A DNA stretch of 64,000 nucleotides, from the NCBI GenBank assembly GCA_030595835.1, contig JAUVLG010000001.1, positions 4,614 to 68,613 of the forward strand, written 5' to 3'. Of the stretch, positions 6,666 through 61,679 are shown piece by piece. The stretch is from Candidatus Eiseniibacteriota bacterium. GTDB taxonomy: Bacteria > Joyebacterota > Joyebacteria > Joyebacterales > Joyebacteraceae. The position numbers were made by a program, and so were the translations under genes. The first letter of the stretch is position 1; each line of letters starts with the position of its first letter. A model generated the notes under the pieces. It saw only the letters and a program-made list of their open reading frames with translations, did not search any database and was not told where the DNA came from.

Positions 6666-6670
6666 GTCGA

Positions 6671-32868: not shown

Positions 32869-32889
32869 ACGGTCGACCGGAGGATGAAC

Positions 32890-33822
32890 ATGCTGACAGC
32901 AAGCGTCGGCGTGATGGCATACAACGAAGAGCAGAACATCGGCAAGCTCCTGACGGCACTCAAGGGACAGTCCCTCGAGAACGTGGAGATTCGCCAGATC
33001 ATCGTGGTGTCCAGCGGCTCGAGCGACCACACCGACGAGATAGTCGCCGAGTGCGCGGCGAAGGACGACCGGATATCGCTCATCAGGCAGGAACAGCGCA
33101 TGGGCAAGGCATCGGCCATCAATCTGTTCCTGGATGCGGCCGAAGCGGATATCTTCGTGCTTGAGAGCGGCGACACCATCCCTGCGCCCGATTGCGTGGA
33201 GCGCATGCTCGCGCCCTTCACCAACTCCGGCGTGGGCATGAGCGGGGGCAGACCCGTTCCCGTCGATGACCCGAACACATTCATGGGTTTCGTGGTCCAC
33301 ATGCTGTGGCGGCTCCACCACATGCTGGCGCTCAAGTCGCCGAAGCTGGGAGAGATGGTCGCTTTCCGGTCGTTTGTGAGATCTATCCCAGCGGATACCG
33401 CGGTGGACGAAGCCAGCATCGAGGCCCTCGTCATCGAGGAAGGACTGTCGCTGGCGTACGCGCACGATGCCATCGTCTACAACAAGGGGGCCGCGACGGT
33501 CGGCGATTTCCTCAAGCAAAGACGGCGCATCTACGCGGGGCACATCTGGCTGTCGAAGGTCCAGTCCTACGAGGTGTCGACCAAGAAGGTCGGCGGCATT
33601 CTCTCGGTTCTGCTGGAGGATCTCAAACCGACCCCGCGGACGCTTCTGTGGACAGCCGGCGGCGTGTTCCTGGAGTTCGTGGGACGCCTGCTGGGCGCCA
33701 TCGACTATCACGTCCTGAAGAGGAACCCCTACACGTGGGAAGTGTCCCACAGTACGAAGAACCTCGACGCGCCCGTGAGTCATGACAGCGGAGCGAGGGG
33801 GGCGGGGGCGCTCGATGGTTGA
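32890..33822 (+). CDS. Family 2 glycosyltransferase
   Basis: VGVMAYNEEQNI start with DxD-type GT-A fold features (ESGDTIP). ATG 32890 has better ribosome-binding-site spacing than 32884. Confidence 0.65.
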   Translation: MLTASVGVMAYNEEQNIGKLLTALKGQSLENVEIRQIIVVSSGSSDHTDEIVAECAAKDDRISLIRQEQRMGKASAINLFLDAAEADIFVLESGDTIPAPDCVERMLAPFTNSGVGMSGGRPVPVDDPNTFMGFVVHMLWRLHHMLALKSPKLGEMVAFRSFVRSIPADTAVDEASIEALVIEEGLSLAYAHDAIVYNKGAATVGDFLKQRRRIYAGHIWLSKVQSYEVSTKKVGGILSVLLEDLKPTPRTLLWTAGGVFLEFVGRLLGAIDYHVLKRNPYTWEVSHSTKNLDAPVSHDSGARGAGALDG

Positions 33823-34918
33823 GATCCTCGCGAAGATCCCATTCTACAAGCTGGCCCGCGCGACGGGGTGGCCCCGCGTGCTCCCGCTGAACCTGACGGT
33901 CAGCGTTACGTATCGCTGCAACTCCCGATGCCTCACGTGCAACGTCTACACAAAGGAAGCGGCTGAGTTTACGGTGGACGAGTTCGATCGGACCTTCCGG
34001 TCGCTCGGCCGCGCGCCGTACTGGTACACGATGAGCGGCGGCGAGCCCTTCCTTCGATCCGACCTGCCGGATATCTGCGCGAGTGCGTACCTGCACGGCA
34101 AGCCTAGGATAATCAACATACCGACCAACGGTCTCCTCTCGTCGCGAATACCCTCAATGGTCGAGGAGATCGCGCGGCGCTGCCCGAGAACACAGATCAT
34201 CATCAACCTCTCACTCGACGGCATAGAGGACGAGCACGACAGGATCAGGGGCGTTCCCGGCAGCTTCGAGAAGGCCGTCGAGACGTACCGCGGCCTGCGG
34301 GCTCTGAACGTCCCGAATCTTGCCTTGGGTGTTCACACCGTGATCTCAGTACACAACGTCGAGCGGATACCCGCAATCTATGAGCACATCACCCGGGAGC
34401 TCGCTCCCGACTCGTTCATCACGGAGATCGCGGAGGAACGAGTGGAACTCGAGACGATCGGCGCCTCGATAACACCGCCGGCGGATGCGTACGGCCGCGC
34501 CGTCGACTTCCTGATCGCGCGCATCAGGGAGCAGAGTTACTCGGGCATCTCGCGCATCACGCAATCGTTCCGGATCCGCTATTACGAACTGGTGAAGCGC
34601 TTCCTCGCTGCCGGCGGCCAGCCGATCCCGTGCTACGCGGGAGTGGCGTCGGCCCAGATCGCTCCGGATGGCCACGTGTGGTTCTGCTGCATCAAGGCCG
34701 AGTCGATGGGGAACCTGCGCGACGTGGATTACGACTTCCGCCGCATCTGGTACGGCGAGCCGGCGGTGGAGGAACGGAAGAGGGTCCGTGCAGGCGACTG
34801 TTCGTGTCCACTCGCGAACGCCGCCTACACGAACATGCTGATGCACGTGCCGACGGTCGCGGGCGTGGCCTTCGAGGTTGCAGCAGGACGGAGCGGTGGG
34901 AAGACAAGGAGAGCGTGA
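33815..34918 (+). CDS. Radical SAM enzyme with C-terminal SPASM/twitch-like cysteine cluster
   Basis: CX3CX2C motif YRCNSRCLTCNV plus GGEPFL. C-terminal extra cysteines: CYAGV...WFCC...GDCSCP. ATG overlaps the upstream GT2 stop (ATGGTTGA). Confidence 0.7.
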   Translation: MVEILAKIPFYKLARATGWPRVLPLNLTVSVTYRCNSRCLTCNVYTKEAAEFTVDEFDRTFRSLGRAPYWYTMSGGEPFLRSDLPDICASAYLHGKPRIINIPTNGLLSSRIPSMVEEIARRCPRTQIIINLSLDGIEDEHDRIRGVPGSFEKAVETYRGLRALNVPNLALGVHTVISVHNVERIPAIYEHITRELAPDSFITEIAEERVELETIGASITPPADAYGRAVDFLIARIREQSYSGISRITQSFRIRYYELVKRFLAAGGQPIPCYAGVASAQIAPDGHVWFCCIKAESMGNLRDVDYDFRRIWYGEPAVEERKRVRAGDCSCPLANAAYTNMLMHVPTVAGVAFEVAAGRSGGKTRRA

Positions 34919-34921
34919 GAA

Positions 34922-36061
34922 GTGGCCGTTTTTCTGGAGGAGATAGGACGCTACCGGCTGGAGGATGTGCGGAACGCGATAGGTCGGGCCCTGGACGAAC
35001 TGGGCGTGGACCTCTCGGGCAAGCGCACGGCGTTCATCAAGCCCAACCTCGTCATCGCCGCGAAGCCCGGGACGGCCGTCGTGACACACCCCGTGGTGGT
35101 CGAGGCGCTCGTCGGCGTACTGCGGGAGCGAGGACTCACGTCGATCTCGATGGGTGATGGACCGGGGGTCGGACTCGACGTCGAGAAGGTCTTCCGCGTG
35201 ACCGGGTACAGGAAGCTCTCCGAGCGCCTGGGTGTTGAACTCGTCAATCTCAACACCACGGAGCGACGGAAGAGGGAATGGAAGTACGGGGAGATGGGAG
35301 TTCCCGCGATAGTCGAGGACACCGACCTCTATGTCAACGTACCGAAGCTCAAGACGCACGGTTACACGAAGGTCACGCTTGCGGTCAAGAACCACAAGGG
35401 CCTGCTGTCCGAGGCCGACAAGAAGCGCGATCATCAGTTGGGGTTGCACGATCCTCTGGCCCAGCAGGCCACGATACGTCCCCCTGACCTCATCGTGCTG
35501 GACGGCATAACAGGAGTGGAGGGGGACGGCCCCCTCAACGGCAAGGTTGTGAAGTCGCGCGTCTTCGCGGTCGGCACCAACATGGTCGAGGTCGATGCGG
35601 TGGCCGCGCGTCTGATGGGGTTCGATCCTGCCGAGATAGAGCACCTGAGACTGGCGCACGAACTCGGCGTGGGCAACATGGACCCCGAGGTCAGGGGAGC
35701 AGCGCCCTCGAGGCAGTTTGAACCTGCCAACGAGGAGTTCGGCCGCGTCGCGAACATCTACTCGTGGCGCGATCCTACCGCGTGCTCCATGTGCATCGAC
35801 TCATTCAGCGGAGCGGCACACCTGGCGGTGCGCAAGCCGAAGTACTGGTTTACGCTGGTACCGAAGCTGGCGTACTGGGGCGTGTTCAAGAAGCTCCACA
35901 TCATCCAGGGGAAGGCGGCACGGCTTCCGGGTGAGCGCGGACGAGTCATCTGCCTCGGACAATGCACCCGCGACCTTGCGGAGAGCGAGGGCCTCACGCA
36001 CATAGCCGGGTGCCCACCGACGCCCGAGGAAGTGGCCGAGACTCTGAGGAAGGAACTCTAA
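34922..36061 (+). CDS. DUF362 domain protein (putative Fe-S protein)
   Basis: Hallmark AFIKPNLV motif near the N-terminus. C-terminal cysteines: CSMCID, CLGQC, GCPP. GTG start 3 nt after the radical-SAM stop. Confidence 0.6.
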   Translation: MAVFLEEIGRYRLEDVRNAIGRALDELGVDLSGKRTAFIKPNLVIAAKPGTAVVTHPVVVEALVGVLRERGLTSISMGDGPGVGLDVEKVFRVTGYRKLSERLGVELVNLNTTERRKREWKYGEMGVPAIVEDTDLYVNVPKLKTHGYTKVTLAVKNHKGLLSEADKKRDHQLGLHDPLAQQATIRPPDLIVLDGITGVEGDGPLNGKVVKSRVFAVGTNMVEVDAVAARLMGFDPAEIEHLRLAHELGVGNMDPEVRGAAPSRQFEPANEEFGRVANIYSWRDPTACSMCIDSFSGAAHLAVRKPKYWFTLVPKLAYWGVFKKLHIIQGKAARLPGERGRVICLGQCTRDLAESEGLTHIAGCPPTPEEVAETLRKEL

Positions 36062-36064
36062 CGC

Positions 36065-36919
36065 ATGGCGGCGACGGACAAGGACACCGGACTGGGAACC
36101 AGCTACGAGCGCATCGCCGTGGCGCGGCTCCTCGCGGGACTCGCTGAGAGGTACACCATCAGCAAGGTGCTCGAGGGCCCCACGGACGGCATAACAGGAA
36201 TCAGCGGGCTCAACAGCATTCCTCTCGCGCAGCGTGGTGCGTCCGTCGAACTCGTGCTCGGGGATCCCGACGAGGTCGTGCTTGCCGAGCGCGCCTGGGA
36301 GACGCTTGGTCTGAAGGACAGGGTCACGATTCGGGCGGCCGGCGGGGATTCTCTCGGGGTCGAGCCACGCTCCTACGATCTGGTGTGGAACTTCAACTCG
36401 CTTCCCATTGTCGCGTCGGCTGACGCACTTCTGGACGAGATGTGCGAGGCCAGCCGTGAATTCGTCATGGTCTTCGTTTCCAACACGTGGAACTACGGGT
36501 TCCCGATCCATCGCCTTCACCACAAGGTCGCGGGTGAACCATGGAGCCACGGGAACATCTCCGTGATGAACACACGAATGGTATCCGAGAGGCTCGAGCA
36601 GCGGGGATTCAAGATCATCGAGCGCCTGCTGGTCGACACCCCGTGGTGGCCGGACATCGATTCACCGATAGAGGAGGTCGCCGCGACCTTCCTTCCATTC
36701 CTCAAGAGGTTCGTCAGCGGTTCGAAGAGGCTGGAGAGGTACACCTGGACGATAGACACGCTCCCGTACTTCGACGAGGAGCGACTCGCCCGTCTCCTGT
36801 CCGACATCGAGAAGCACTTCGCGATAGAGAACACCGGATTCAAACCCCTCAAGATCTTCTTTGCGCACCACAGAGGCGTGCTCGCGCGGAGGACCGGGGG
36901 CGGGGAGGCGTCGGTTTGA
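36065..36919 (+). CDS. Hypothetical protein, possibly a degenerate class I methyltransferase-like fold
   Basis: VLEGPTDGITGISGL and DLVWNFNSL resemble methyltransferase motifs I and II only loosely. No firm family call. Confidence 0.35.
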   Translation: MAATDKDTGLGTSYERIAVARLLAGLAERYTISKVLEGPTDGITGISGLNSIPLAQRGASVELVLGDPDEVVLAERAWETLGLKDRVTIRAAGGDSLGVEPRSYDLVWNFNSLPIVASADALLDEMCEASREFVMVFVSNTWNYGFPIHRLHHKVAGEPWSHGNISVMNTRMVSERLEQRGFKIIERLLVDTPWWPDIDSPIEEVAATFLPFLKRFVSGSKRLERYTWTIDTLPYFDEERLARLLSDIEKHFAIENTGFKPLKIFFAHHRGVLARRTGGGEASV

Positions 36920-37959
36920 GTCGGCGACTCCGCATAACGCTCGGGATCATAGCGGGCGTTGTTCTCCTGGCACTCGCCCTGTGGGGCGTGGATGCGACCG
37001 AGCTTCGGAACAACATCGCCCGAGCGAAGGTCGGCTGGCTCGCCGCCGCCGCCGTTCTCTACCTCGCCGCGTACTTCGTGCGCAGTCTCAGATGGCGCGC
37101 CATTCTCCACCCAATCGTTCCTGTCCGCGTCTCCGAGAGCTTCCACATGCTCATGGCCGGGTATTTCCTCAACTACATCATCCCGATCAGAGCGGGGGAA
37201 GTGGCGAAGTCGTTCTTTCTGAAGAGGCTCAAGGGTGTGCCGATCGCGACGACCCTCCCGACGGTGTTTGTGGACAAACTGTTCGAACTCGTCTCGATCC
37301 TCTTCGTCGTCACCATGCTGCCGATACTCTCGATCAGCATGAGCGCGACGCTCGCCGCGCTGATCTACACCGTCCTGGCCATCTTCCTGCTGGCGATCGG
37401 GTTGCTCTTCTTCGCGTTTCGAAACCCGGACGGCGCCTCACGTCTTCTGTGCGCCCTGTTCTCGTGGATGCCCCACCGTGTCTACAGTAAGCTGTCCGAA
37501 TTCATCAGCCTCTTCGTGCAGGGCATGGGGGTCGCCAGACGTGAGGCCCGCACGCTCTGGATGTTTCTGGGGCTGACGGGCCTCGCCGTGCTCATCGACG
37601 GGCTCTACTTCTACTTCATGTTCAGGGCCTTTTCGGTCGATGTCGCCTTTACGAGAGTCCTCTTCGGGTATACTCTGCTGACGTTGTCGTACATCCTGCC
37701 GACGCCACCGGCACAGATCGGCTACAACGAGTTCGTGATAGGGCTGATCTTCGCGGGAGGAATCGCGGTGGGCGGTGTGGCCCGAGATGAGGTGATGGCA
37801 GTGGTCATAGTCGCACACGCGATGACGGGGCTTCTCATCGCAGGTGTCGGCATGTGGTCGTTTGGTGCGATGGGTATCAAGGTGAAAGAGAGCTTCAGGA
37901 GGGTGGCCGGCGTCGCAGGGGACGACGGCACGAAGAGCGGGAGGTCGGAGCGTGAGTGA
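36916..37959 (+). CDS. UPF0104/flippase-like domain membrane protein (MprF-N-terminal/AglD-like family)
   Basis: Polytopic. Motifs ALWGVDATELRNNIARAKVGWLAAA, LRWRAIL and YFLNYIIPIRAGEVAKSFFLKR are typical of the TIGR00374 flippase-like family. TTG start at 36916 overlaps the upstream stop (TTGA) and follows GGGGAGG. The track's 36541 start lies inside the previous gene. Confidence 0.6.
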   Translation: MSRRLRITLGIIAGVVLLALALWGVDATELRNNIARAKVGWLAAAAVLYLAAYFVRSLRWRAILHPIVPVRVSESFHMLMAGYFLNYIIPIRAGEVAKSFFLKRLKGVPIATTLPTVFVDKLFELVSILFVVTMLPILSISMSATLAALIYTVLAIFLLAIGLLFFAFRNPDGASRLLCALFSWMPHRVYSKLSEFISLFVQGMGVARREARTLWMFLGLTGLAVLIDGLYFYFMFRAFSVDVAFTRVLFGYTLLTLSYILPTPPAQIGYNEFVIGLIFAGGIAVGGVARDEVMAVVIVAHAMTGLLIAGVGMWSFGAMGIKVKESFRRVAGVAGDDGTKSGRSERE

Positions 37960-38932
37960 GATCGTCCTAGTGACTGGCGCGGCGGGTTTCGTGGGTTCGC
38001 ACGTCGTCGAGCGTTTGCTGGCGGACGGGAAGACCGTGCGCGGTGTGGACGCCTTCATCGACTACTACCCGCGGGCGGTCAAGGAAGAGAATCTCAGGGC
38101 GGCGATGGAGAGCGATTCCTTCGAGCTCGTCGAGGCCGACCTGGCGGTGGCGGATCTCACGCCTATCCTCGAAGGGGTGACGTCGGTTTGTCATCTGGCC
38201 GCGCAGGCCGGGGTCCGTGCCAGTTGGGGAACGACCTTCTCCACCTACATCGACTGCAATATCCTGTCGAGCCAGCGCCTTCTCGAAGCGGTCAAGGACC
38301 GAGCGCTCTCGAGGTTCGTGTACGCGTCCAGCTCATCAGTCTACGGCGAGACGACGGACCTTCCGATGCGGGAGAATGGGCTGACGTGTCCCGTGTCTCC
38401 TTACGGTGTGACGAAGCTGGCGGCCGAGCACCTCGCGGTTCTTTACAATCGGAACTACGGCGTGCCGACGGTGTCGCTCAGGTACTTCACCGTCTACGGT
38501 CCGCGGCAGCGGCCCGACATGGCGTTCCACCGTTTCATCCGCTCGGGGCTTCTGGGCGAGCCGATTACGATCTTCGGTAACGGCCATCAGACGCGCGACT
38601 TCACGTATGTGGGCGACATCGTCGCCGCGACCGTGGCGGCCCTGGAATCGGGGCCCGAGGGAGGTGTGCTGAACGTCGGAGGCGGAAGTCGTGTCACACT
38701 CAATGAGGCACTGGACGCCATAGAGAGCACTCTCGGTATCAAATTGGAGAGGCGGTACATCGAGCGCGCCAGAGGAGATGTTACGGACACACTGGCGGAC
38801 AATTCGAGGGCGAGGGACATGCTCGGCTTCCGTCCGACCGTGGGGCTCGAGGAAGGTCTGGCGCTCGAACGCGGATGGATGGAATCGGCCGTGCTGACGC
38901 CTGGTGCAGCCGCGAACGAGGAGGCTAGCTGA
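37952..38932 (+). CDS. NAD-dependent nucleotide-sugar 4-epimerase (GalE/WbpP-like SDR)
   Basis: VLVTGAAGFVGSHVVERLL, SSSSVYGE and PYGVTKLAAE (YxxxK). GTG start. Confidence 0.75.
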   Translation: MSEIVLVTGAAGFVGSHVVERLLADGKTVRGVDAFIDYYPRAVKEENLRAAMESDSFELVEADLAVADLTPILEGVTSVCHLAAQAGVRASWGTTFSTYIDCNILSSQRLLEAVKDRALSRFVYASSSSVYGETTDLPMRENGLTCPVSPYGVTKLAAEHLAVLYNRNYGVPTVSLRYFTVYGPRQRPDMAFHRFIRSGLLGEPITIFGNGHQTRDFTYVGDIVAATVAALESGPEGGVLNVGGGSRVTLNEALDAIESTLGIKLERRYIERARGDVTDTLADNSRARDMLGFRPTVGLEEGLALERGWMESAVLTPGAAANEEAS

Positions 38933-38935
38933 TAC

Positions 38936-39889
38936 ATGGACATCTCTGTCGTAATACCGTTGCTGAACGAGGCCGACAGCCTGAGGGAGCTCTACGAACG
39001 CATCGACGACGCGCTCGGCCCTCTCGGCCGCGAATGGGAAGTGATCTTCATCAACGATGGAAGCACCGACTCCTCGATGGACGTTCTGCGCAGCCTTCAC
39101 GAGGAGAAGGAGAACGTCAGGGTGCTCGTGTTCGGGAGAAACCTCGGCAAGTCGGCCGCGCTCAGTGTGGGTTTCAAGGAAGCCGTGGGAGACGTCGTTT
39201 TCACCATGGACGCCGATCTACAAGATGACCCCGCGGAGCTGCCTGTGATGCTCAAGATGATAGAGAGCGGGTACGACCTCGTGTCGGGATGGAAGAAGGA
39301 GCGCAGGGACCCACTCTCGAAGCGGCTCCCGTCGAAGCTCTACAACGCGGTGACCGGGAGGCTGTCCGGCGTCGGGATCCACGACATGAACTGCGGACTC
39401 AAGGCGTACCGCAAGCAGGTCGTGAAGACCATCCGGGTGTACGGCGAACTCCACCGCTACACGCCCGTCCTGGCACAGTGGGCGGGCTTCACGGTGACCG
39501 AGGTTGTGGTCAAACACCACGCTCGCAAGCACGGACGCTCGAAGTTCGGCGCGGAGCGCTTCCTCAGAGGCTTCTTCGACCTCCTGACGGTGCTATTCCT
39601 GCGACGCTACATCACAAGACCACTCCACCTCTTCGGGATGTTGGGTGGGGTGCTCTTCTCAGGCGGGTTCCTGGCGGGGCTCTACCTCACGATCCTGAAG
39701 ATCATGGGGCAGGCGATAGGCCGCAGGCCCCTCCTGACGCTCGCGATTCTTCTTATGGTCGTCGGTGTGCAGTTCGTCTCGTTGGGACTCCTGGGAGAGA
39801 TGCTGGCAAATCTCAGAGGGGACGACATCTCGTACCCACTGAGGGAGCGTCTCGGGCGGAAGGACGGTGGGCTTGGCGATAAGTCCTGA
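38936..39889 (+). CDS. Polyprenyl-phosphate glycosyltransferase (GT2, GtrB/ArnC/Dpm1-like with two C-terminal TM helices)
   Basis: ISVVIPLLNEADSL...FINDGSTD...TMDADLQDDP GT-A motifs. C-terminal TM pair: LFGMLGGVLFSGGFLAGLYL and LLTLAILLMVVGVQFVSLGLLG. Confidence 0.75.
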   Translation: MDISVVIPLLNEADSLRELYERIDDALGPLGREWEVIFINDGSTDSSMDVLRSLHEEKENVRVLVFGRNLGKSAALSVGFKEAVGDVVFTMDADLQDDPAELPVMLKMIESGYDLVSGWKKERRDPLSKRLPSKLYNAVTGRLSGVGIHDMNCGLKAYRKQVVKTIRVYGELHRYTPVLAQWAGFTVTEVVVKHHARKHGRSKFGAERFLRGFFDLLTVLFLRRYITRPLHLFGMLGGVLFSGGFLAGLYLTILKIMGQAIGRRPLLTLAILLMVVGVQFVSLGLLGEMLANLRGDDISYPLRERLGRKDGGLGDKS

Positions 39890-41075: not shown

Positions 41076-41076
41076 A

Positions 41077-41973: not shown

Positions 41974-41977
41974 CCAC

Positions 41978-43396: not shown

Positions 43397-43426
43397 TAGG
43401 CCCTTGAGGGAGGCGGAGCCCTACAA

Positions 43427-46311: not shown

Positions 46312-46355
46312 CGAGTGAGACTTAAGCGACACGCTCGATCCTGCACGGAGGGCCG

Positions 46356-50106: not shown

Positions 50107-50118
50107 GGGAACCCCTGC

Positions 50119-53036: not shown

Positions 53037-53082
53037 GAAGGCTCTAGCTAGGCTATGATCTTGCATGAAGGAGCAGACAACC

Positions 53083-54456: not shown

Positions 54457-54459
54457 CCA

Positions 54460-55923
54460 ATGAACAAGCAGAAGAAGGAAGTTCGCACGCTGGTGGTTGG
54501 TGCGGGATCCGCCGGGACGATGGCCGCAACCGAGATGGCCAAACGCTCCGAGCATGGCTACGTCGTCACGGGGTTTCTTGATGACGATCCGGCGAAGCTT
54601 GGGCGGACGATCGCCGGGGCTCCGGTGCTCGGTGCCATAGCGGACCTTGCAGTCGTCGCAGCCGAACACGACATCCAGGAAGTAGTCATAGCCATACCCT
54701 CTGCATCAGGCCACACCATCCGCGAGGTGGTGCGACTCTGTGAGGGGGCCGGGCGCTCGTTCAAGATCGTCCCAGGCGTCTGGGAGATAATCCTCGGCGA
54801 CGTCCAGATCAGTCAGATCAGGGAACTCGAGCTCGCGGATCTGCTGGGACGCGAGACCGTCGCGCTCGACACCGAGAAGATGACCGCCTATCTCAGCGGT
54901 CGCGTCGTCCTCATCACCGGCGCGGGCGGTTCCATCGGGTCCGAGCTGGCCAGGCTCGTCGCCGGGTTCAAGCCTTCGTGCATCCTTCTGATGGGACGGG
55001 GGGAGAACAGCGTCTACGAGATCGACAGGGAGCTGGCGATCGACCACCCGGACGTCAGTCGGGTTCCTGTTATCGGCAGCGTTACAGACGAGGTGGCGCT
55101 GGAGAAGGTCTTCGCCGAGCACCATCCAGAGATAGTGTTCCATGCGGCCGCGCACAAGCACGTTCATCTGATGGAGTTCTTTCCGGACGAGGCCATCAAG
55201 AACAACGTTACCGGCACGCGCAGGCTGATCGAGGCGGCCACGAGGCACGACGTCGACCGGCTTGTGATGCTCTCGACGGATAAGGCGGTGCGCCCGAGGG
55301 GTGTCATGGGCGCGTCGAAGCGCCTGGCAGAGCTGACGATACTCAGGAAGACGGCGGCGGGGTGCCGCACCAAGCTGATCGCCGTGCGTTTCGGCAACGT
55401 ACTGGGCAGCCGAGGCAGCGTAGTACCCATGTTCCAGCAGCAGGTTCGGCTTGGTGGGCCCGTCACGGTGACGCACCCGGACGTGACGCGATACTTCATG
55501 ACCATCCGCGAGGCCGCGATGCTCGTGCTGGAGGCCGGTTTCGCCGGCCGCGGTGGTGAGATATTCGTGCTGGATATGGGGGACCCCATACGAATAGCGG
55601 AACTGGCCGAGCACGTGATCAGGCTGTCCGGCCTCGAACCCGGCACGGATATCGCTATAGAGTACTGTGGACTCCGTCCTGGCGAGAAACTGCACGAGGA
55701 GCTGTGGTCCTCAGCGGAGACCTTGTCGCGGACCGAGTACGAGAAGATCATGGTCCTGAAGTCCAGTGACACACCGCCGCTCGCGCAGACGACCGCTGCC
55801 TCCGACGCGCTGGAGGAACTGGCCGCACGCGGCGACCGCGAGGGAATTGTCCGGATGCTCCGTGAACTGTTCGAGGACATGCCGGCGGAGGAGCTAGATG
55901 AAGACGGCACTACCTGCGGTTGA
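54460..55923 (+). CDS. UDP-N-acetylglucosamine 4,6-dehydratase (PglF/CapD/WbpM family, soluble form)
   Basis: N-terminal CoA-binding-like domain, then SDR core VLITGAGGSIGSEL...MGASKRLAE... Confidence 0.8.
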   Translation: MNKQKKEVRTLVVGAGSAGTMAATEMAKRSEHGYVVTGFLDDDPAKLGRTIAGAPVLGAIADLAVVAAEHDIQEVVIAIPSASGHTIREVVRLCEGAGRSFKIVPGVWEIILGDVQISQIRELELADLLGRETVALDTEKMTAYLSGRVVLITGAGGSIGSELARLVAGFKPSCILLMGRGENSVYEIDRELAIDHPDVSRVPVIGSVTDEVALEKVFAEHHPEIVFHAAAHKHVHLMEFFPDEAIKNNVTGTRRLIEAATRHDVDRLVMLSTDKAVRPRGVMGASKRLAELTILRKTAAGCRTKLIAVRFGNVLGSRGSVVPMFQQQVRLGGPVTVTHPDVTRYFMTIREAAMLVLEAGFAGRGGEIFVLDMGDPIRIAELAEHVIRLSGLEPGTDIAIEYCGLRPGEKLHEELWSSAETLSRTEYEKIMVLKSSDTPPLAQTTAASDALEELAARGDREGIVRMLRELFEDMPAEELDEDGTTCG

Positions 55924-57097
55924 GGGCGGCGAACCCGTCAGGGAGGAATTCCTTCCGTTCGCGACGCCCTCCGTTGGCGAGGACGAGATAGCCGAGGTCG
56001 TCGAGACCCTGAGATCTGGATGGCTGACCGTCGGTCCGAGAACGAAGAGGTTCGAGGAGATGATCGCGGGCTACGTTGGGGTCGCACGTGCGGCGGCTCT
56101 CAGCTCGTGCACGGCGGGCCTGCATCTCGGCATGATAGCCCTCGGCGTGGAGGAAGGCGACGAGGTCATCCTCCCGGCACTCAACTTCGTTGCCGGGCCG
56201 AACTGCGCGATTCATCTTGGCGCGACACCAGTGCTCGTGGATGTGGACCCAGAGACGCTCAACGTAACACCCGAGATCCTGGCTGCCGCGATCACGGAGC
56301 GCACGAAGCTCATCGTGCCGGTGCATTATGGGGGACGGCCGATTGACATCGACGGCATCATGGAGGTTGCGCGCTCCCGGGGTATTCCGGTTCTGGGTGA
56401 CGCCGCGCATGCTCTGGGGTCGGACTACGGCGGACGCAAGGTGGGGTCCGTTGCTGACGCCACGTCGTTCAGCTTCTACGTGACCAAGGGGATCACAACC
56501 GGAGAGGGGGGCAGCCTGACCTCCCCGAACCCCGACCTGGTTGAGCGCGTCGGAGTCTTGAGCCTCCACGGAATGAGCAGCGGGGCGTGGAACCGCTACT
56601 CGGCGCGCGGCTCGTGGTTCTACGAGATCCACGAGGCAGGTTACAAGTACAACATGAACGATATCCAGGCCGCCATCGGCGTCCACCAGATGAAGAAGAT
56701 CGACGAGTTCAGAGACAGGCGAGAGAAGATCGCACGAATCTTCGATCGCGGGCTTCGGAGCGAAGAGGCGATCAGTGTGCCCTCCTCGTCCGAGTCGAGC
56801 GGACACGCGTGGCACCTGTACCCGATCCGCTTGAGAACGCAGGCGCTTAAGGTCGACCGCGACTCGTTCATAGGGTGTCTCAGGGACGAGGGAATAGGAA
56901 CGAGTGTCCACTTCATTCCGGTCCACTACCACGACTACTACAGCAAGCGGCTCGGCTACAAGCGCGGTAGTTTCCCTGTGACCGAGACGTTCTTCGAGCA
57001 CGCGGTCTCGCTTCCCATCTACCCGTCGATGAGCGATGCTGATGCGAACGATGTGGTCGAGGCAGTGACCAAACTGCTGGCCTACTACAGGAGATAG
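55898..57097 (+). CDS. DegT/DnrJ/EryC1/StrS-family PLP-dependent sugar aminotransferase (PglE/PorR-like)
   Basis: SFSFYVTKGITTGEGG lysine motif and overall DegT fold. Confidence 0.85.
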   Translation: MKTALPAVEGGEPVREEFLPFATPSVGEDEIAEVVETLRSGWLTVGPRTKRFEEMIAGYVGVARAAALSSCTAGLHLGMIALGVEEGDEVILPALNFVAGPNCAIHLGATPVLVDVDPETLNVTPEILAAAITERTKLIVPVHYGGRPIDIDGIMEVARSRGIPVLGDAAHALGSDYGGRKVGSVADATSFSFYVTKGITTGEGGSLTSPNPDLVERVGVLSLHGMSSGAWNRYSARGSWFYEIHEAGYKYNMNDIQAAIGVHQMKKIDEFRDRREKIARIFDRGLRSEEAISVPSSSESSGHAWHLYPIRLRTQALKVDRDSFIGCLRDEGIGTSVHFIPVHYHDYYSKRLGYKRGSFPVTETFFEHAVSLPIYPSMSDADANDVVEAVTKLLAYYRR

Positions 57098-57160
57098 CCC
57101 TTCTGGGAGCGTCCGGGGTGATCCCCAACGAGGCTATCGCCGAGGACAGGCAGAGAAGAG

Positions 57161-58147
57161 GTGGCTCAAGCGTTGGACATAGAGGTATCAGTCGGCATCG
57201 ATTCGCAGGAGTGGGGCTGCCTCGTCGCTGAAGACGAGGCAGCTACGTTCTTCCATACGTCGGAGTGGTCCGAGGTTCTGACCTCGACGCTGCCCGGCTT
57301 CGAGTCGGCGCACGTCACCGCGCGTGAGCACGGTCGTTTGGTGTCCATCATGCCGGTACTCAGTCGACCGAGGCTCAGGACCGCGACGCTGGAGTCAATG
57401 GCTTTCGGCACCTTCGGAGGACCGGTGCTGGGCGCCCACGCTCCCGCGGCCGCAGCGGGGGCGGTACTCGCTGCATTCGCCGGCGCTGCGGCGTCGCTGC
57501 GGGTCGGGCTGGCGCAGGTGGTCGACCGGTCGGGCCGAATACAGGACTCGCATCTGCCCGGCTTCCGCCGCACCGACGATACTCTGCAGGTCGTTTCTCT
57601 CGAGGCGAGCTACGACGAGCTCGAGAGACACTTCAAGCCGTCCGCCCGCAACAAGGTGCGGAAGGCCATCAAGGCCGGAGTGACAGTCAGACGCGCGGAG
57701 TCCGAGGCGGACTTCCTGGCCTACCACGCGGTCCTCGAGGAGTGCAGCCGCGAGTGGGCGATCAGGCCACGCCCGGGACGCGAGTTCTTCAGCGCGCTGT
57801 TTGAGCTCGACCGGGACGTGGTGCAGATGTGGCTGGCGTTTCACGATGGTGACGTGCTGGCGGGCGACCTCAACTTCGCCCTTCACGGGACCGTGATGAA
57901 CTGGGGCAACGTGTCGACCGACGCCGCCAAGTCGCTCGCGCCGAACAACCTCCTGCACGCCAACGCGATAGAGCAGGGCGTGCGTGACGGGTACCAGACC
58001 TATGACCTTGGCTCGAGCGGCGGCATCGAGGGAGTCAGAGCTTTCAAATCGTCCTTCGGGACGGCGGACGTCCCGCTGCGAAGATTCGTGATGGAGAAGA
58101 CCTGGTATCGTGGCCTGAAGAAGGCTACTGGTCGCCGGTCGGGCTGA
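57161..58147 (+). CDS. FemAB / Acetyltransf_6-family (GNAT-fold) acyl- or aminoacyl-transferase
   Basis: Motifs SARNKVRKAIKAGVTVRRAESEADF, FFSALFE, WLAFHDGDVLAGDLNF, YQTYDLGSS and AFKSSFG match the BioF2-like/FemAB-like acetyltransferase family common in polysaccharide loci. GTG start. Confidence 0.6.
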   Translation: MAQALDIEVSVGIDSQEWGCLVAEDEAATFFHTSEWSEVLTSTLPGFESAHVTAREHGRLVSIMPVLSRPRLRTATLESMAFGTFGGPVLGAHAPAAAAGAVLAAFAGAAASLRVGLAQVVDRSGRIQDSHLPGFRRTDDTLQVVSLEASYDELERHFKPSARNKVRKAIKAGVTVRRAESEADFLAYHAVLEECSREWAIRPRPGREFFSALFELDRDVVQMWLAFHDGDVLAGDLNFALHGTVMNWGNVSTDAAKSLAPNNLLHANAIEQGVRDGYQTYDLGSSGGIEGVRAFKSSFGTADVPLRRFVMEKTWYRGLKKATGRRSG

Positions 58148-58249
58148 GAACACCTGGAAGGCACGCGGCTTCCGCCCGGGGGCGTACATGAAGTTCACCC
58201 ATGAAAAGGACGCTCAGCAGGCGCTGACGGAAGACGGGGGAGAGCTCAC

Positions 58250-59536
58250 ATGAAATCCAGTGCCAGGATAGTCCTCCTCGTGGCCATCGCGGTCCACATT
58301 GTGTTCCTGGCGTCACTCATCGCCCCCGGGCACTTCCTGAATCCGCTTTTCCCCGAGGGGATGCACAATCTGGGTGAGGGGCAGGGCAGTGACTTCTATG
58401 CTTTCTATCAGGCCGGGCGCTACGTGCTCGACAATGAGAATATCTACACGAGACCCATGGACGACCCGGACCGCGTCGTTCCGTACGCGTACTTCTACCG
58501 CTACCTTCCATTCGTGGCGTACACGATAGGAGTTGCGGCGAATGCGGTCCCGCCCGTGGTCGCCTACTGGATCTGGGTCGCGATCATCGAGCTGGTCCTG
58601 GGACTCTGCATCTGGGGCACGCGCGGCATCACTCGAGACGGAAGCCTCTTCGCCTACCTGGCCGCGATGTGGCTCATGTACACGCCCTTCTATCTGGAAC
58701 AGTACATGGGGCAGCTCACGTTCGCGATGGCGGCGATGTCGTTCGCTTTCGCCGTGATGCACCTTCGGGGGAGAGCGCTTGCATCCGACGGTTGGTGGTG
58801 GGCCAGTGTGGTCATCAAGCACCTGACGGTGCTCTATGTGCCGATTCTGATCAGGTTGCGGAAGTACCGGACCATCGCCATCGCCGTACTGCTGCTGCTC
58901 GTGACGAGCGTTCCCTACTATCTGCTCCGGAACCACGGGACCGGCCATTTCACGCATGACAACTTCAGCCTCAATCTTGACCCCTACGCCGGGAACATGG
59001 GCGCTGTTGCCTTCTTCATGGTCATAAAGGAGCGTTTCTTCCCGTTCGCCTCACAGGTGCTGGTTCACCTGGGTCCGCTCAAACTATCGATCACACGCGT
59101 GGGCGTGGGGCTGATCATGGGCGTGCCCGTGCTCGTGAGTCTCTGGGCCACCTTTCGAAGGAGACCCTTCGATTTCCTCGAGTCCTTCGCGCTGTGGACG
59201 ATGGTGTACTTCTTCGTATTCAGAGAAGTGTGGGAATACCACTACGTTCTCCTGATGCCCGTGTTCGTGCTTCTCTACGCGCGGACGCGGGCGCGGGTGC
59301 TGTGGTTCATCTACGCGCTGGCCGCCCTCCCAACGCTCTTCGTTCTATATGACGTCCCCGGCTCGGACCCGGGAGAGGCGTGGGAAGCGTGGAGCGCGTT
59401 CGAGCACGTCCTTAACCACGGCTTGAAACTGATACCCGTCGTGTGGCTCTTCGTCTGGGTGGCCGCGGGCTACCTCCGCCGACACACGAAGCTCATGGAA
59501 TCCCGAATGGACACGGGACTCGACCTGCTCACCTGA
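58250..59536 (+). CDS. Polytopic membrane protein, candidate GT-C-fold glycosyltransferase (DUF2029/GT87-like)
   Basis: 428 aa, about 10 TM helices, aromatic-rich loops. The assignment rests only on context and topology. Confidence 0.4.
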   Translation: MKSSARIVLLVAIAVHIVFLASLIAPGHFLNPLFPEGMHNLGEGQGSDFYAFYQAGRYVLDNENIYTRPMDDPDRVVPYAYFYRYLPFVAYTIGVAANAVPPVVAYWIWVAIIELVLGLCIWGTRGITRDGSLFAYLAAMWLMYTPFYLEQYMGQLTFAMAAMSFAFAVMHLRGRALASDGWWWASVVIKHLTVLYVPILIRLRKYRTIAIAVLLLLVTSVPYYLLRNHGTGHFTHDNFSLNLDPYAGNMGAVAFFMVIKERFFPFASQVLVHLGPLKLSITRVGVGLIMGVPVLVSLWATFRRRPFDFLESFALWTMVYFFVFREVWEYHYVLLMPVFVLLYARTRARVLWFIYALAALPTLFVLYDVPGSDPGEAWEAWSAFEHVLNHGLKLIPVVWLFVWVAAGYLRRHTKLMESRMDTGLDLLT

Positions 59537-59626
59537 GCAGCCAGGGAGCACGTTCCGCCTTCACGCGGCCTCCCGCGACGGTGGGCGCAGCGGAGGCTGG
59601 CAGACGGTTGATATGGAGCTGACAGC

Positions 59627-60736
59627 ATGCGAATTGCGTATCTCTCAATAGGCGGACACATACACACCGAGCGGTGGCTCCGCTTCTTCGTGGATCGTGG
59701 GCACGACGTCCACCTGATGACGGTCCAGCCTGCGCCGATCGAAGGCGTGAAGCTGTACGACATCCGAACGGGCATTCCCTTCAAGGCTCTGCACTACGCC
59801 GTGGCGCTGCGGGAAGTGAAGAGGATCCTGGCGGAGATCCAGCCGGATCTCCTGCACACTCACTTCCTCACCGGGTACGGCTACTGGGGCGTCTTCTCGG
59901 GATTTCATCCCAACATCCTGACGGTCTGGGGCGATGACGTCTACCTGACACCCCACACGTCCTTTCTGAAGGGCTGGCTCGCACGCATGGCGCTGAGAGG
60001 CGCCGATCTCGTAACGGGAGACTCGGACGACATACTGGAGCATGCCATCGCCATGGGGGCGGAGAGGGAGGCGTGCCACGTGATTCAGTGGGGCGTTGAT
60101 CTGGCGGCTTTCAGGCCCGACGCGCCGTCCGACGTGCGGGAGCAGCTTGGCATCCCCGCCGACTCACCGGTCGTCATCAGCATCAGGAGCTTCACGCAGC
60201 CGTACTACAACATCGACGTCATCGTGCGTGCCATTCCCGGGATTCTCGAGAAGCGGCCGGACACACATTTCATCATCGCCGGAAACGAGGGCGACGACAC
60301 GGAGTTCAGAGCCCTGGCCGGAGAGCTGTCCATCGACGACAGAGCACACTTCGTGGGCAAGATCCCACACGAGGAGCTGCCGGGGTACCTGGTGGCTTCA
60401 GACGCGTTCCTGAGCGTGCCGTCGGTCGATGCGACGGCCGTGTCGTTGCTGGAGGCCATGGCGTGCGGGACTCCGGTCGTGGTGTCAAGCCTGGATTCGG
60501 CGCTTGAGTGGGTCACCGATGGGAAGAACGGACTCGTCGTCACTCCGCGCGACCAGGGTGCGCTCGAGTCCGCCGTCCTGCAGCTCCTGGACTCGCCAGA
60601 GCGCAGGCGCGAGTTCGGGACCATCACTGCCGGGATGGTTCGGGAGCGCGCCGACCACGACGCGCACATGTCCAGAATGGAGGAGCTCTGCGTGGAGCTC
60701 GTCGAGCGCTGGAGGAAGACCAGTGGAACCAGCTAG
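59627..60736 (+). CDS. Family 4 (GT-B) glycosyltransferase
   Basis: MRIAYLSIGGHIHTERW start, then GT4 C-terminal E-x7-E region ...LEAMACGTPVVVSSLDSALEWVTDGKNGLVV. Confidence 0.75.
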   Translation: MRIAYLSIGGHIHTERWLRFFVDRGHDVHLMTVQPAPIEGVKLYDIRTGIPFKALHYAVALREVKRILAEIQPDLLHTHFLTGYGYWGVFSGFHPNILTVWGDDVYLTPHTSFLKGWLARMALRGADLVTGDSDDILEHAIAMGAEREACHVIQWGVDLAAFRPDAPSDVREQLGIPADSPVVISIRSFTQPYYNIDVIVRAIPGILEKRPDTHFIIAGNEGDDTEFRALAGELSIDDRAHFVGKIPHEELPGYLVASDAFLSVPSVDATAVSLLEAMACGTPVVVSSLDSALEWVTDGKNGLVVTPRDQGALESAVLQLLDSPERRREFGTITAGMVRERADHDAHMSRMEELCVELVERWRKTSGTS

Positions 60737-61679
60737 ATCAGTTAGCGTCATCATCCCCACATTCGGGAAGCGGGAGCTCCTCGAGGCTACGCTCGACTCG
60801 CTCGGACGGCAGACCTACCCCGCGGAGCAGATCGAGATCGTCGTCGTTGATGACGGGTCCGATGATGACACGTTCGAGTATCTCCGGTCGCTCGATACTC
60901 CCTACGCTCTCGTTCCCATCAAGCACGAGATCAACAAGGGGAGGGCCGCCGCCCGGAACACGGCCATCGAAGCCTCAACGGGCGACCTCACCGTGTTCGT
61001 GGACGACGACATGCGCTGCGAGCCTGATCTCATAGAGCGCCACGTCTCCTTCCACGCCGCGCACCCCGGTGTTGTCGTCATAGGCAGCGCCGTCACGGCG
61101 CCGGAGCTCGGCCGCGCGACCGTGTTCACATACCTTGACGAGATGGGGGTGCACCGTCTGCCGGCAGGCTCGGTATCTCCGGCCCGGTACTTCGCCACCA
61201 ACAACGCGTCCGTCGAGCGGCGACACCTCCTGGACGTTGGGTTGTTCGACGAGTCATTCAGAAACTACGGATGCGAGGACACGGAGCTGGCCTTTCGTCT
61301 GGAGGACGATGCGGGACTGAGGTTCATGTACTGCGCCGAGGCCGTCGCATACCACATACACACGCAAACGCTCGACGATGTCCTCGCGAAGCGCATCGGC
61401 AGCGTCCCCCCGTTGCTGCTGCTGATCACCAAGCATCCTGACCGCGCCTCCGAACTCTCCATCGACGTGCTGATGCCGCCCGCGCCGGGAGACTCCGTTG
61501 GAGTCAGGCTACATAAACTCCTCCTTGCGTTCTCCACGAACCGGCTCTTCTATGCGCTGGTCAAGTCGCTCGCGCGAGTCGTCTGGCTCCGCGGCCTCTC
61601 CAGGGACGTGATGGTGTATCTCATCGCCTGCCAGTACCGTCGCGGACTGCGCCTGATCTCGGAAGAGAACAGCAGCTGA
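60723..61679 (+). CDS. Family 2 glycosyltransferase
   Basis: VSVIIPTFGKRELLEATLDSLGRQTYPAEQIEIVVVDDGSDD...VFVDDDM. GTG at 60723 follows GGAGGA; the track's 60429 start lies inside the previous gene. Confidence 0.7.
   Translation: MEPARSVSVIIPTFGKRELLEATLDSLGRQTYPAEQIEIVVVDDGSDDDTFEYLRSLDTPYALVPIKHEINKGRAAARNTAIEASTGDLTVFVDDDMRCEPDLIERHVSFHAAHPGVVVIGSAVTAPELGRATVFTYLDEMGVHRLPAGSVSPARYFATNNASVERRHLLDVGLFDESFRNYGCEDTELAFRLEDDAGLRFMYCAEAVAYHIHTQTLDDVLAKRIGSVPPLLLLITKHPDRASELSIDVLMPPAPGDSVGVRLHKLLLAFSTNRLFYALVKSLARVVWLRGLSRDVMVYLIACQYRRGLRLISEENSS

Follow-up and report, generated by a model that had tools for sequence, protein, structure and literature searches.

A 64,000-nucleotide (nt) stretch of contig JAUVLG010000001.1 (positions 4,614–68,613 of the forward strand) from a Candidatus Eiseniibacteriota bacterium (assembly GCA_030595835.1; hereafter Candidatus Eisenbacteria) carries a dense run of genes for glycan assembly. 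We refer to the whole 64-kilobase (kb) stretch as the window and to the run, at window positions 32884–61679, as the block. The open reading frame (ORF) list and refined start positions place 23 consecutive genes (g01–g23) in the block, all on the + strand, or 24 if a metallophosphoesterase gene at 32143–32868 is taken in; a preliminary description of the same DNA, made from the sequence alone, had counted about 27. The block is a new, previously undescribed locus of a well-known kind, polyprenyl-phosphate-based glycoconjugate assembly, and its parts are ordinary. What sets it apart is synteny at the level of the phylum, the absence of genes for polymerization, ligation and export, and a PorZ-like propeller protein that is restricted to the locus.

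Organization and gene content of the block

Coding sequence accounts for 98% of the block, leaving 492 of 28,796 nt non-coding. The 22 junctions between genes consist of 8 overlaps, 7 gaps of 1–12 nt and 7 gaps of 28–106 nt, as expected from the tiny or negative spacers described previously, and because no gap exceeds 106 nt there is no room for missed genes. Shine–Dalgarno context was used to refine four starts: g02 (33815), g05 (36916, a TTG codon with GGAGG upstream), g16 (50829, GTG with GAGGAGG upstream) and g23 (60723, GTG with GGAGG upstream). The shared orientation had been presented as a feature of the locus; it is instead a property of the region, because around 54 of the 55 genes across the window lie on the + strand.

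Domains were called with Pfam and NCBIfam. The genes are as follows (coordinates in the window; Pfam E values unless bits are given).

g01, 32884–33822, + strand: soluble GT2 glycosyltransferase, 312 amino acids (Glycos_transf_2, 2.1e-24)
g02, 33815–34918, + strand: radical S-adenosylmethionine (SAM)/SPASM enzyme (Radical_SAM, 1.4e-15, plus SPASM)
g03, 34922–36061, + strand: DUF362 protein (DUF362, 1.9e-45)
g04, 36065–36919, + strand: class I SAM-dependent methyltransferase-like protein, 284 amino acids (named so in homologues)
g05, 36916–37959, + strand: flippase-like polytopic membrane protein, MprF-type (LPG_synthase_TM/TIGR00374; Pfam 3.2e-41)
g06, 37952–38932, + strand: nucleoside diphosphate (NDP)-sugar epimerase/dehydratase of the short-chain dehydrogenase/reductase type (Epimerase, 4.9e-58)
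g07, 38936–39889, + strand: GT2 polyprenyl-phosphate-sugar synthase, ArnC/GtrB/PgfS-like (GT2, 1e-30)
g08, 39867–41075, + strand: GT4 glycosyltransferase (Glyco_trans_1_4, 2.3e-28)
g09, 41077–41973, + strand: GT2 glycosyltransferase (GT2, 2.9e-19)
g10, 41978–43396, + strand: alkaline-phosphatase-superfamily enzyme, predicted periplasmic lipoprotein (Phosphodiest, 6e-29; Sulfatase, 7.9e-10)
g11, 43427–44533, + strand: GT9 (heptosyltransferase-family) glycosyltransferase (Glyco_transf_9, 1.5e-15)
g12, 44530–46311, + strand: five N-terminal transmembrane (TM) helices and an alkaline-phosphatase-superfamily domain, LtaS/EptA-like architecture (Phosphodiest, 2.3e-27)
g13, 46356–47624, + strand: MOP-family (Wzx-like) flippase candidate, about 10 TM segments
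g14, 47731–50106, + strand: YfhO-family GT-C glycosyltransferase, 791 amino acids, about 12 TM segments (YfhO, 53.1 bits; cut-off 28.5)
g15, 50119–50832, + strand: DPM1/Ppm1-like GT2 polyprenyl-phosphate-hexose synthase, 237 amino acids, no TM segment (GT2, 2.7e-35)
g16, 50829–53036, + strand: N-terminal GT2 fused to a WbaP-type polyprenyl-phosphate phosphoglycosyltransferase (GT2, 4.9e-25; CoA_binding_3, 6.5e-15; Bac_transf, 2.7e-22)
g17, 53065–54456, + strand: secreted single beta-propeller with a type IX secretion system (T9SS) type A C-terminal domain (Reg_prop, Por_Secre_tail)
g18, 54460–55923, + strand: PglF/WbpM/CapD-type UDP-HexNAc 4,6-dehydratase without the N-terminal TM region (Polysacc_synt_2, 2.3e-109, plus CoA_binding_3)
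g19, 55898–57097, + strand: DegT-family sugar aminotransferase (DegT_DnrJ_EryC1, 8.2e-123)
g20, 57161–58147, + strand: FemAB/GNAT-fold N-acyl or aminoacyl transferase, VimA-like family (Acetyltransf_6, 3e-16; FemAB; FemAB_like)
g21, 58250–59536, + strand: polytopic GT87/DUF2029-type GT-C glycosyltransferase, PimE-like (from fold and homologue domains)
g22, 59627–60736, + strand: GT4 glycosyltransferase (Glycos_transf_1, 2.9e-32; Glyco_trans_4_2, 1.5e-24)
g23, 60723–61679, + strand: EpsD-like GT2 glycosyltransferase that closes the block (GT2, 5.1e-28)
Metallophosphoesterase, 32143–32868, + strand: lies 15 nt ahead of g01 and is an uncertain member of the locus (Metallophos_2, 3.4e-18)

The position of the metallophosphoesterase gene is kept in loci L009 and L010, but its product is only 42–51% identical there; g01 also keeps its position in both and is 74–75% identical.

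Nine Leloir-type glycosyltransferase (GT) domains are present: GT2 in g01, g07, g09, g15, the N terminus of g16 and g23, GT4 in g08 and g22, and GT9 in g11. The number agrees with the preliminary description, which had spread them over four families; they fall into three CAZy families, and g07 and g15, the lipid-linked monosaccharide synthases that it listed in addition, exist but are already among the nine. The block further encodes one phosphoglycosyltransferase (PGT) domain, at the C terminus of g16, and the two anticipated GT-C enzymes, g14 and g21. More generally, Pfam and NCBIfam annotation upheld nearly every function that had been named—including two flippase types (g05 and, as a candidate, g13), an epimerase (g06), a dehydratase (g18), an aminotransferase (g19), an acyltransferase (g20), two Phosphodiest-domain proteins (g10 and g12), a radical-SAM enzyme (g02) and an embedded secreted propeller (g17)—and did not assign most ORFs to unrelated functions.

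The Leloir-type glycosyltransferases are assigned at the level of the family. Synthase g07 has two C-terminal TM helices (segments at residues 232–278) and reaches 201.6 bits with the NCBIfam model for ArnC (cut-off 529) and 152 bits with that for PgfS, a family-level assignment only. For g15, the most conserved gene of the block (73–90% identity), the AglJ, ArnC, PpgS and dolichyl-phosphate-hexose transferase models all score under cut-off. GT2 enzyme g09 is weakly rhamnosyltransferase-like (TIGR01556, 63 bits; cut-off 200) and g23 scores 177 bits with EpsD (cut-off 370). The g16 fusion scores 206.6 bits with TIGR03025 (cut-off 295.55), and its C terminus matches WbaP (8t53, 1.4e-16) and PglC (8g1n, 3.3e-13) in the PDB. 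The GT9 enzyme g11 matches 3tov (1.4e-17) and WaaF (1psw, 2.8e-10) and falls short of the heptosyltransferase equivalogs (TIGR02195, 66 against 134.6 bits; TIGR02193, 64.9 against 185.3 bits). It carries eight cysteines in two clusters (C9, C18, C24 and C27; C334, C337, C342 and C348), of which C9 is conserved in the 5 of 5 orthologues that cover it and the other seven are invariant in 6 of 6. Such clusters are unusual for heptosyltransferase-family proteins and suggest a bound metal or Fe–S centre.

Among the membrane enzymes, g14 scores well above the YfhO cut-off and its orthologues carry PF09586; matches to the NCBIfam models PgfM1 and PgfM2 are confined to its C-terminal part, for PgfM1 to the last 70 residues. 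No Pfam family matches the window copy of g21, yet many of its homologues carry PF09594. Its AlphaFold2 model (mean predicted local distance difference test score (pLDDT) 87.8) retrieves PimE first in Foldseek (9dm7 and 9dm5; template-modelling scores 0.63 normalized to the query (TMq) and 0.72 to the target (TMt)), followed by ALG6 and GPI-MT-I, and D48 in the first loop is invariant. Flippase-like g05, with around 6–8 TM segments, exceeds the TIGR00374 cut-off (89.7 against 43.2 bits). Polysacc_synt matches g13 orthologues in 5 of 7 cases (best 1.7e-8), and Polysacc_synt_3 matches three. The five TM segments of g12 all precede residue 185; in the PDB this protein finds only weak matches to iPGM and phosphonoacetate hydrolase. 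The sequence of g10 begins with a signal bearing a VAGC lipobox and contains the motifs GVDA, WTSIATG and SDHGF. These two enzymes are paralogues with a common, distinctive C-terminal tail (…MDDGIKEKLRALGYIE and …MDDAIREQLKSLGYIE), and both retain the putative Thr nucleophile and DHG metal motifs.

In the sugar-modifying set, the GalE, LegB and RmlB models for g06 and the PseB and FnlA models for g18 are under cut-off, as are PseC (373 bits; cut-off 423.5) and ArnB (365 bits; cut-off 631) for g19. For g20, TIGR03019 (pepcterm_femAB; 72.5 bits, cut-off 260) ranks first among the NCBIfam families. The best PDB match of g02 is the sugar-nucleoside decarboxylase BlsE (7vob, 6.5e-10), and we infer a tailoring role for it. 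The window copy of g04 has no Pfam match, and a few of its homologues carry PF13489, PF13649 or PF08241. PDB sequence searches with g03, g13, g14 and g20 gave no match. A hopanoid (Hpn) side-chain pathway was considered and rejected, with HpnH, HpnA, HpnB and HpnI at 22–73 bits against cut-offs of 225–379.

Pfam scans of the 23 genes and of nearly all other genes in the window found no Wzy, Wzz/PCP, WaaL, Wza/Wzc, OPX or ABC exporter family. A GtrA/GtcA-family match is also missing from the block, g05 belonging to another family (LPG_synthase_TM/TIGR00374). Because no Wzy, Wzz, WaaL or Wza/Wzc was found in locus or window, a simple repeat-unit O-antigen is a very unlikely product, and the two pairs of polyprenyl-phosphate-sugar synthase and GT-C enzyme argue for periplasmic branching or decoration.

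Conserved order and vertical inheritance

At least 12 independent contigs of Candidatus Eisenbacteria share one gene order, at protein identities of 42–90% (collinear loci L002–L005, L007–L010, L012, L014, L017, L023, L025 and L027), so the functional clustering exceeds chance. A scan of species-representative genomes with g14 returned 8 loci, 6 in metagenome-assembled genomes (MAGs) titled Candidatus Eisenbacteria and 2 in further bacterial MAGs. In tblastn searches with all block proteins, g05–g22 were perfectly collinear both in loci at around 85% identity and in loci at around 60–70%, and homologue look-ups with g04 and g21 extended the synteny to both ends of the block. For g04 we found 156 homologues; identity is 54% or higher in the 120 listed, and all of these that have a named organism belong to Candidatus Eisenbacteria. 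A metagenome scan with a g17 profile added 4 long contigs that are collinear over g12–g23–PduL, plus 8 fragments. The flanks are conserved with the block: L009 and L010 read smc–ftsY–ribD–ribE–ribBA–ribH–nusB–metallophosphoesterase–g01, and L012 and L014 read g22–g23, a gap of 650–740 nt and then PduL and a bacterial microcompartment (BMC) locus. Compared with one MAG, the block proteins are 44–80% identical, and the flanking FtsY, RibD, NusB and RibH are 64, 53, 63 and 77% identical. Block and flanks are thus collinear and the block diverges like housekeeping genes, which marks it as core and vertically inherited. Comparison of syntenic loci therefore yields one order and no split of the block by differing conservation patterns.

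The word ‘island’, with its implication of acquisition, does not fit these data. The window has around 63% G+C, and the block has a GC content of 0.60–0.66 and a third-position GC content (GC3) of 0.76–0.83, the same as its flanks; those flanks are conserved together with the block, no mobility genes were found and no tRNA lies at the borders, the only tRNA in the window being at 10249. We therefore rejected horizontal acquisition. GC skew is strongly positive (around +0.13) throughout the window and about +0.04 over the block, with GC and GC3 unchanged; the lower value probably reflects the amino-acid composition of the many membrane proteins encoded there.

In two divergent lineages, L016 (labelled Eisenbacteria_CAIMUX01) and its relative L097, the DegT, FemAB-like and GT87 genes are the basis of a small cluster, so the large block is evolutionarily modular. 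The L016 locus examined contains the small module only. In the L097 cluster, the radical-SAM and methyltransferase genes have no detectable similarity to g02 and g04, and only the trio is shared. An outgroup contig from an unrelated organism (L013; JGI 3300005098, 54% GC) has the same toolkit in another gene order: a GT-C-rich cluster of two GT87, three PMT_2 and one YfhO gene with two radical-SAM genes, several GT2 genes and an epimerase gene, in which a full-length homologue of g02 (30% identical) lies directly upstream of a DPM1-like GT2 gene and the YfhO gene.

A PorZ-like propeller protein restricted to the locus

The g17 product has a Sec signal, a single propeller and a C-terminal beta-sandwich at residues 380–463 (AlphaFold model, pLDDT 88). 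Its C-terminal domain exceeds the cut-off of TIGR04183, the type A domain of T9SS cargo (31 against 23 bits). In Foldseek searches of the PDB, PorZ (5m11) ranked first at 4.7e-20, ahead of hybrid two-component system (HTCS) sensors of Bacteroides at around 1e-14; by sequence search the order is reversed, and HTCS sensor propellers rank ahead of PorZ. The nearest relatives outside the family, at 22–26% identity, include bona fide PorZ proteins with PorZ_N (PF21544). Compared with PorZ, g17 is half the size, has one propeller and lacks PorZ_N, and it scores 78.5 bits on the NCBIfam PorZ model (cut-off 260). We regard g17 as PorZ-like in fold and not as a PorZ orthologue.

Within the block, g17 diverges fastest (58–59% identity where its neighbours are at around 85%), and it lies three genes upstream of the VimA-like g20. 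In the metagenome scan, all 12 true homologues with flanking DNA lie between, or adjoin, g16 and g18; none of 68 further loci with weak Reg_prop matches has glycan genes as neighbours. One Logan entry (P0197) is 100% identical to g17; for the g19 protein, a search for an exact match gave no entry.

Relation to known systems

The combination of routes in the block had been described as chimeric. Wzx-dependent assembly accompanied by lipid-linked monosaccharide decoration of the Gtr, Arn or CsbB–YfhO type is well known, and the GT9 enzyme is one more cytoplasmic GT and not a separate route, so the mixture is not unusual.

The block shares with the Pgl systems of Campylobacter and Neisseria the grouping of a Polysacc_synt_2 4,6-dehydratase, a DegT aminotransferase, an N-acyl transferase and a Bac_transf PGT, together with a flippase, for which g13 is the candidate here, and no polymerase; the correspondence of g18, g19 and g16 to PglF, PglE and PglC holds at the family level. 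It differs in that g20 is of the FemAB/GNAT type, whereas PglD is a left-handed-helix (LbH) enzyme, in the large, WbaP-type, GT2-fused PGT, in the lack of TM helices in the dehydratase g18, in the two added GT-C decoration systems and in the absence of PglB and PglL from the block. With the systems GtrA/B/V, ArnC/E/F/T, CsbB–GtcA–YfhO and PgfS/PgfE/PgfM1/PgfM2, it has in common polyprenyl-phosphate-sugar synthases (g07 and g15), an epimerase (g06) and GT-C enzymes including the YfhO-type g14. Unlike these three-component systems, the block has no small GtrA/GtcA flippase, leaving the MprF-type flippase-like g05 as the sole candidate; the components are embedded in a much larger PGT/Wzx line, and the second GT-C is PimE-like (GT87).

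The pairing of the DPM1-like g15 with the GT87 enzyme g21, whose model fits PimE best (TMt 0.72) and whose first-loop Asp is conserved, recalls mycobacterial Ppm1/PimE. Sequence identity between g21 and PimE is only 15%, however, the host is a Gram-negative-type bacterium of the Fibrobacterota–Chlorobiota–Bacteroidota (FCB) group, and the acceptor of the block is unlikely to be a phosphatidylinositol mannoside. Finally, the anionic lipopolysaccharide (A-LPS) Wbp–Vim system of Porphyromonas gingivalis, with PorZ, likewise combines a DegT aminotransferase, a VimA or VimA-like transferase, a GT4 enzyme, a WbaP-type PGT and a propeller protein with a C-terminal domain. The genes lie scattered in P. 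gingivalis and its PorZ has a second propeller, whereas the block has them in one locus with a single-propeller protein. The P. gingivalis amino sugar is a 2,3-diamino uronamide and the product of WbpA, WbpB, WbpD and WbpE with VimE and WbpS; none of these enzymes is encoded in the block.

A proposed assembly line and its alternatives

We consider it probable that the locus is an assembly line for an envelope glycoconjugate of Candidatus Eisenbacteria, composed of known enzyme families, inherited vertically and conserved in the lineage, and that it builds a core glycan of the cell envelope, probably not a variable O-antigen. What the data show directly is the identity of the domains, the order and conservation of the genes and how g17 and g21 fold; from these we propose substrates, an order of steps, an acceptor and roles for g02–g05, g10, g12 and g17. 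In this scheme, g18, g19 and g20 would convert UDP-HexNAc to an N-acylated 4-amino-4,6-dideoxy-hexosamine of the bacillosamine type, the PGT domain of g16 would load a sugar phosphate onto polyprenyl phosphate and its fused GT2 would add a second sugar. Six cytoplasmic GTs (g01, g08, g09, g11, g22 and g23) would extend the chain, a sugar of which may be tailored by g02, g03 and g04 (radical-SAM, DUF362 and methyltransferase), and the Wzx-like g13 would flip the lipid-linked oligosaccharide. On the other branch, g07 and g15 would provide polyprenyl-phosphate monosaccharides for the outer face, with g06 possibly providing a UDP-sugar and g05 possibly flipping; the GT-C enzymes g14 and g21 would add branch sugars from these donors. 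Exported g10 and g12, of the alkaline phosphatase superfamily, may add or trim phospho-substituents. Upstream in the window, rmlA, rmlD, gmhA and a polyprenyl-phosphate phosphoribosyltransferase could give rhamnose, heptose and a third lipid-linked donor. Because the locus has no polymerase, chain-length regulator, ligase or exporter, the product is expected to be a short, non-repeating oligosaccharide, probably heavily decorated. Transfer to its acceptor (lipid A–core, protein or another lipid) would fall to an enzyme encoded elsewhere or to a GT-C, and g17, at the cell surface, would probably bind this product or take part in its handling. The preliminary description had suggested a complex surface glycan, perhaps branched or carrying several decorations, in place of a simple O-antigen: the missing polymerization, ligation and export families bear out the latter part, the synthase–GT-C pairs argue for branching or decoration, and surface location and branching are putative.

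Several observations weigh against this interpretation. Nearly all NCBIfam equivalog scores are under cut-off, so the families are secure and the sugar specificities are not, and the window copy of g13 scores 27.3 bits with Polysacc_synt, just under the cut-off of 28.2. No ligase or oligosaccharyltransferase (PglB/STT3 or PglL/Wzy_C) was found among the genes scanned in the window, and our literature searches found no biochemical or expression results for the lineage. Tight packing counts in favour of the interpretation, as does the outcome of sigma-70 and intrinsic-terminator scans, in which the block showed no excess of promoter-like or terminator-like sites and no boundaries between internal units, but these models may not fit the signals of the host phylum. 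A scan at the Rfam gathering thresholds found no RNA element inside the block. The block could also work for two or more distinct glycans whose genes happen to lie in one operon, a possibility raised by the modularity of the stand-alone DegT/FemAB/GT87 cluster in L016 and L097.

Other products can be envisaged for the same genes. A core or outer-core oligosaccharide of lipooligosaccharide, that is, a non-repeating glycan on lipid A with periplasmic decoration, seems rather unlikely. It would account for the GT9 enzyme g11, for gmhA (6671–7261, just reaching its cut-off), for the lack of an O-antigen polymerase and for lineage-wide conservation, as expected of core regions, and it finds parallels in the Arn-like logic of aminotransferase, ArnC-like GT2 and GT-C and in the EptA-like architecture of g12. 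Core sugars, however, normally join Kdo–lipid A directly, without a phosphoglycosyltransferase or Wzx, whereas the present locus is centred on a WbaP-type PGT and a Wzx-like flippase; the window has no lpx, kdtA, waaL or msbA, and the GT9 equivalog scores are under cut-off. General protein glycosylation would instead send a bacillosamine-type lipid-linked oligosaccharide to envelope proteins, have YfhO/PgfM-like GT-Cs act directly on proteins, or both. The PglF/PglE/PglC-type trio of g18, g19 and g16 and the missing polymerase agree with this, as does the resemblance of g07 and g14 to PgfS and PgfM1 (NCBIfam: Streptococcus glycosyltransferases), which act in protein glycosylation in S. mutans. 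The locus is conserved and not variable, and conserved glycan loci are typical of general glycosylation systems such as the O-glycosylation loci of Bacteroidota. We nevertheless think protein glycosylation improbable: PglB/STT3 and PglL/Wzy_C are absent from the window, a FemAB-type enzyme takes the place of a PglD-type acetyltransferase and the PgfM1 match is limited to the C-terminal 70 residues. A Wzx/Wzy-dependent exopolysaccharide (EPS), capsule or O-antigen cluster, or an acquired glycan island, is largely refuted and very improbable. Matches to TIGR03025 (EPS_sugtrans), EpsD and PEP-CTERM-type FemAB, together with a size and gene mix typical of EPS loci, point that way, but all three NCBIfam scores are under cut-off, there is no Wzy, Wzz/PCP, Wza/OPX or ABC exporter, GC and GC3 are as in the flanks, and neither mobility genes nor a border tRNA are present. 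Close relatives normally differ in their EPS and O-antigen loci, whereas order and flanks are kept here down to 42–60% identity.

The remaining possibility gives g17 a central part: the locus may make the glycan by which T9SS cargo proteins are covalently anchored to the cell surface in Candidatus Eisenbacteria, as a functional analogue of Porphyromonas A-LPS. Here g19 and g20 would make an amino-acid-bearing linking sugar on the 4-amino-4,6-dideoxy-hexosamine, as PorR/WbpE and VimA do, the GT-C and alkaline-phosphatase-type enzymes would build a phosphorylated, branched glycan, and g17 would be a minimal, one-propeller PorZ that presents this glycan to a PorU-type sortase. P. gingivalis VimA matches TIGR03019 and transfers Ser or Gly to an amino sugar, forming the linking sugar of the cargo (PMC7468200), and A-LPS includes a phosphorylated branched mannan that PorZ binds and passes to the PorU sortase (PMC8545088). 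Correspondingly, TIGR03019 is the best family of g20, and the locus encodes two exported phospho-enzymes, a DPM1-like synthase and a mannosyltransferase fold resembling PimE. Among solved structures, PorZ is closest in fold to g17, with an E value about a million-fold better than those of HTCS sensors; its type A C-terminal domain is above the NCBIfam cut-off, true PorZ proteins with PF21544 are among its out-of-family relatives, and its family is confined to this locus. Against these points, Reg_prop propellers all look alike and the TMq of g17 is only 0.56, it has one propeller and no PorZ_N and stays far below the PorZ cut-off, as g20 does below that of TIGR03019, and Wbp uronic-acid pathway genes, a VimE-type deacetylase and WbpS are all missing. 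A canonical PorZ (P0279), moreover, is not in a glycan cluster. We therefore put this forward tentatively, as an unlikely explanation.

Flanking genes

In order along the window come recX, alaS, a geranylgeranylglyceryl phosphate synthase (GGGPS)-family gene, rmlA, rmlD, gmhA, udk, a UbiA-family decaprenyl-phosphate phosphoribosyltransferase gene and ispE, followed by tRNA-Gln, prs, rplY, pth, an H+-pyrophosphatase (H+-PPase) gene, ychF, rpsF–rpsR–rplI, a SurA-like gene and the minus-strand ORF. It continues with selA, a SPOR-protein gene, smc, ftsY, a flavin mononucleotide (FMN) riboswitch, ribD/E/BA/H, nusB, the metallophosphoesterase gene, the block and PduL/BMC.

The GGGPS/PcrB-family gene (3855–4652; NF003198, 283 against 247 bits; TIGR01769, 213 against 161.6 bits) encodes a member of an archaeal-type family of ether-lipid enzymes, in keeping with the archaeal-like lipid genes reported in FCB-group bacteria; a PcrB gene also occurs in L015, an unrelated contig that bears PorZ. 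The genes rmlA (long form, 478 bits), rmlD (322 bits) and gmhA (209.6 bits; cut-off 209.45), at 4717–7261, lie 24–28 kb upstream of the block and are a possible source of dTDP-rhamnose and heptose for its GT2 and GT9 enzymes. The decaprenyl-phosphate phosphoribosyltransferase (7950–8840; NF008977, 264.7 against 234 bits) is encoded near the phosphoribosyl pyrophosphate synthase gene prs (10342–11325) and could feed the GT-Cs of the block; this activity is the first step of the polyprenyl-phosphate-pentose donor route of mycobacterial GT-C arabinosyltransferases. The sole candidate minus-strand gene of the window (18470–19756) would encode a secreted protein of 428 amino acids, rich in Trp, Asp, Gly and Tyr and with the C-terminal motif SWGSIKAMYR, that has no Pfam or NCBIfam match; GC skew falls to about zero around it. 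The adjacent selA (20269–21681) encodes L-seryl-tRNA(Sec) selenium transferase, which indicates that the organism uses selenocysteine.

An FMN riboswitch (27827–27946; Rfam RF00050, 107 bits) precedes ribD–ribE–ribBA–ribH. The rib operon, nusB, the metallophosphoesterase gene and the block follow in succession, and because the last three junctions are gaps of 9–15 nt, read-through transcription into the block is possible. Downstream, a 664-nt non-coding gap (61680–62342) separates the block from PduL/BMC; its length is conserved (650–740 nt in L012 and L014), it has no Rfam match, and a short CCCACAGATC-type tandem repeat occurs in it near 61820–61850. A strong sigma-70-like promoter with an extended −10 element (62219–62247), the only strong such site, lies ahead of the BMC locus. 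This locus (62343–64000 in the window) opens with a PduL phosphotransacylase and a BMC shell protein and goes on in L012 and L014 with EutN, an aldehyde dehydrogenase, an RnfC-like protein and a class II aldolase; it is conserved beside the glycan block across the lineage.

Implications

Candidatus Eisenbacteria has no cultured member, and we found no literature on its envelope, envelope glycans or T9SS. If the parallel with PorZ and VimA is not real, the block is a well-annotated but ordinary polysaccharide biosynthesis locus. If it is true, T9SS cargo anchoring extends beyond Bacteroidota in a form that would be testable with a single operon, and linking-sugar and PorZ functions would be joined for the first time in one conserved locus outside that phylum, with another linking-sugar chemistry. 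The block is also a compact set of co-evolving, poorly understood enzymes, among them a GT2–PGT fusion, YfhO-like and PimE-like GT-Cs, a five-TM alkaline-phosphatase-type enzyme, a Cys-rich GT9 and a VimA-like transferase. The fixed order of the 23 genes across the lineage, and their place between operons of housekeeping function, suggest that the envelope glycoconjugate is essential and defines the lineage, which makes the locus a good target for glycan chemistry, for labelling of cells with antibodies or lectins and for heterologous reconstitution.

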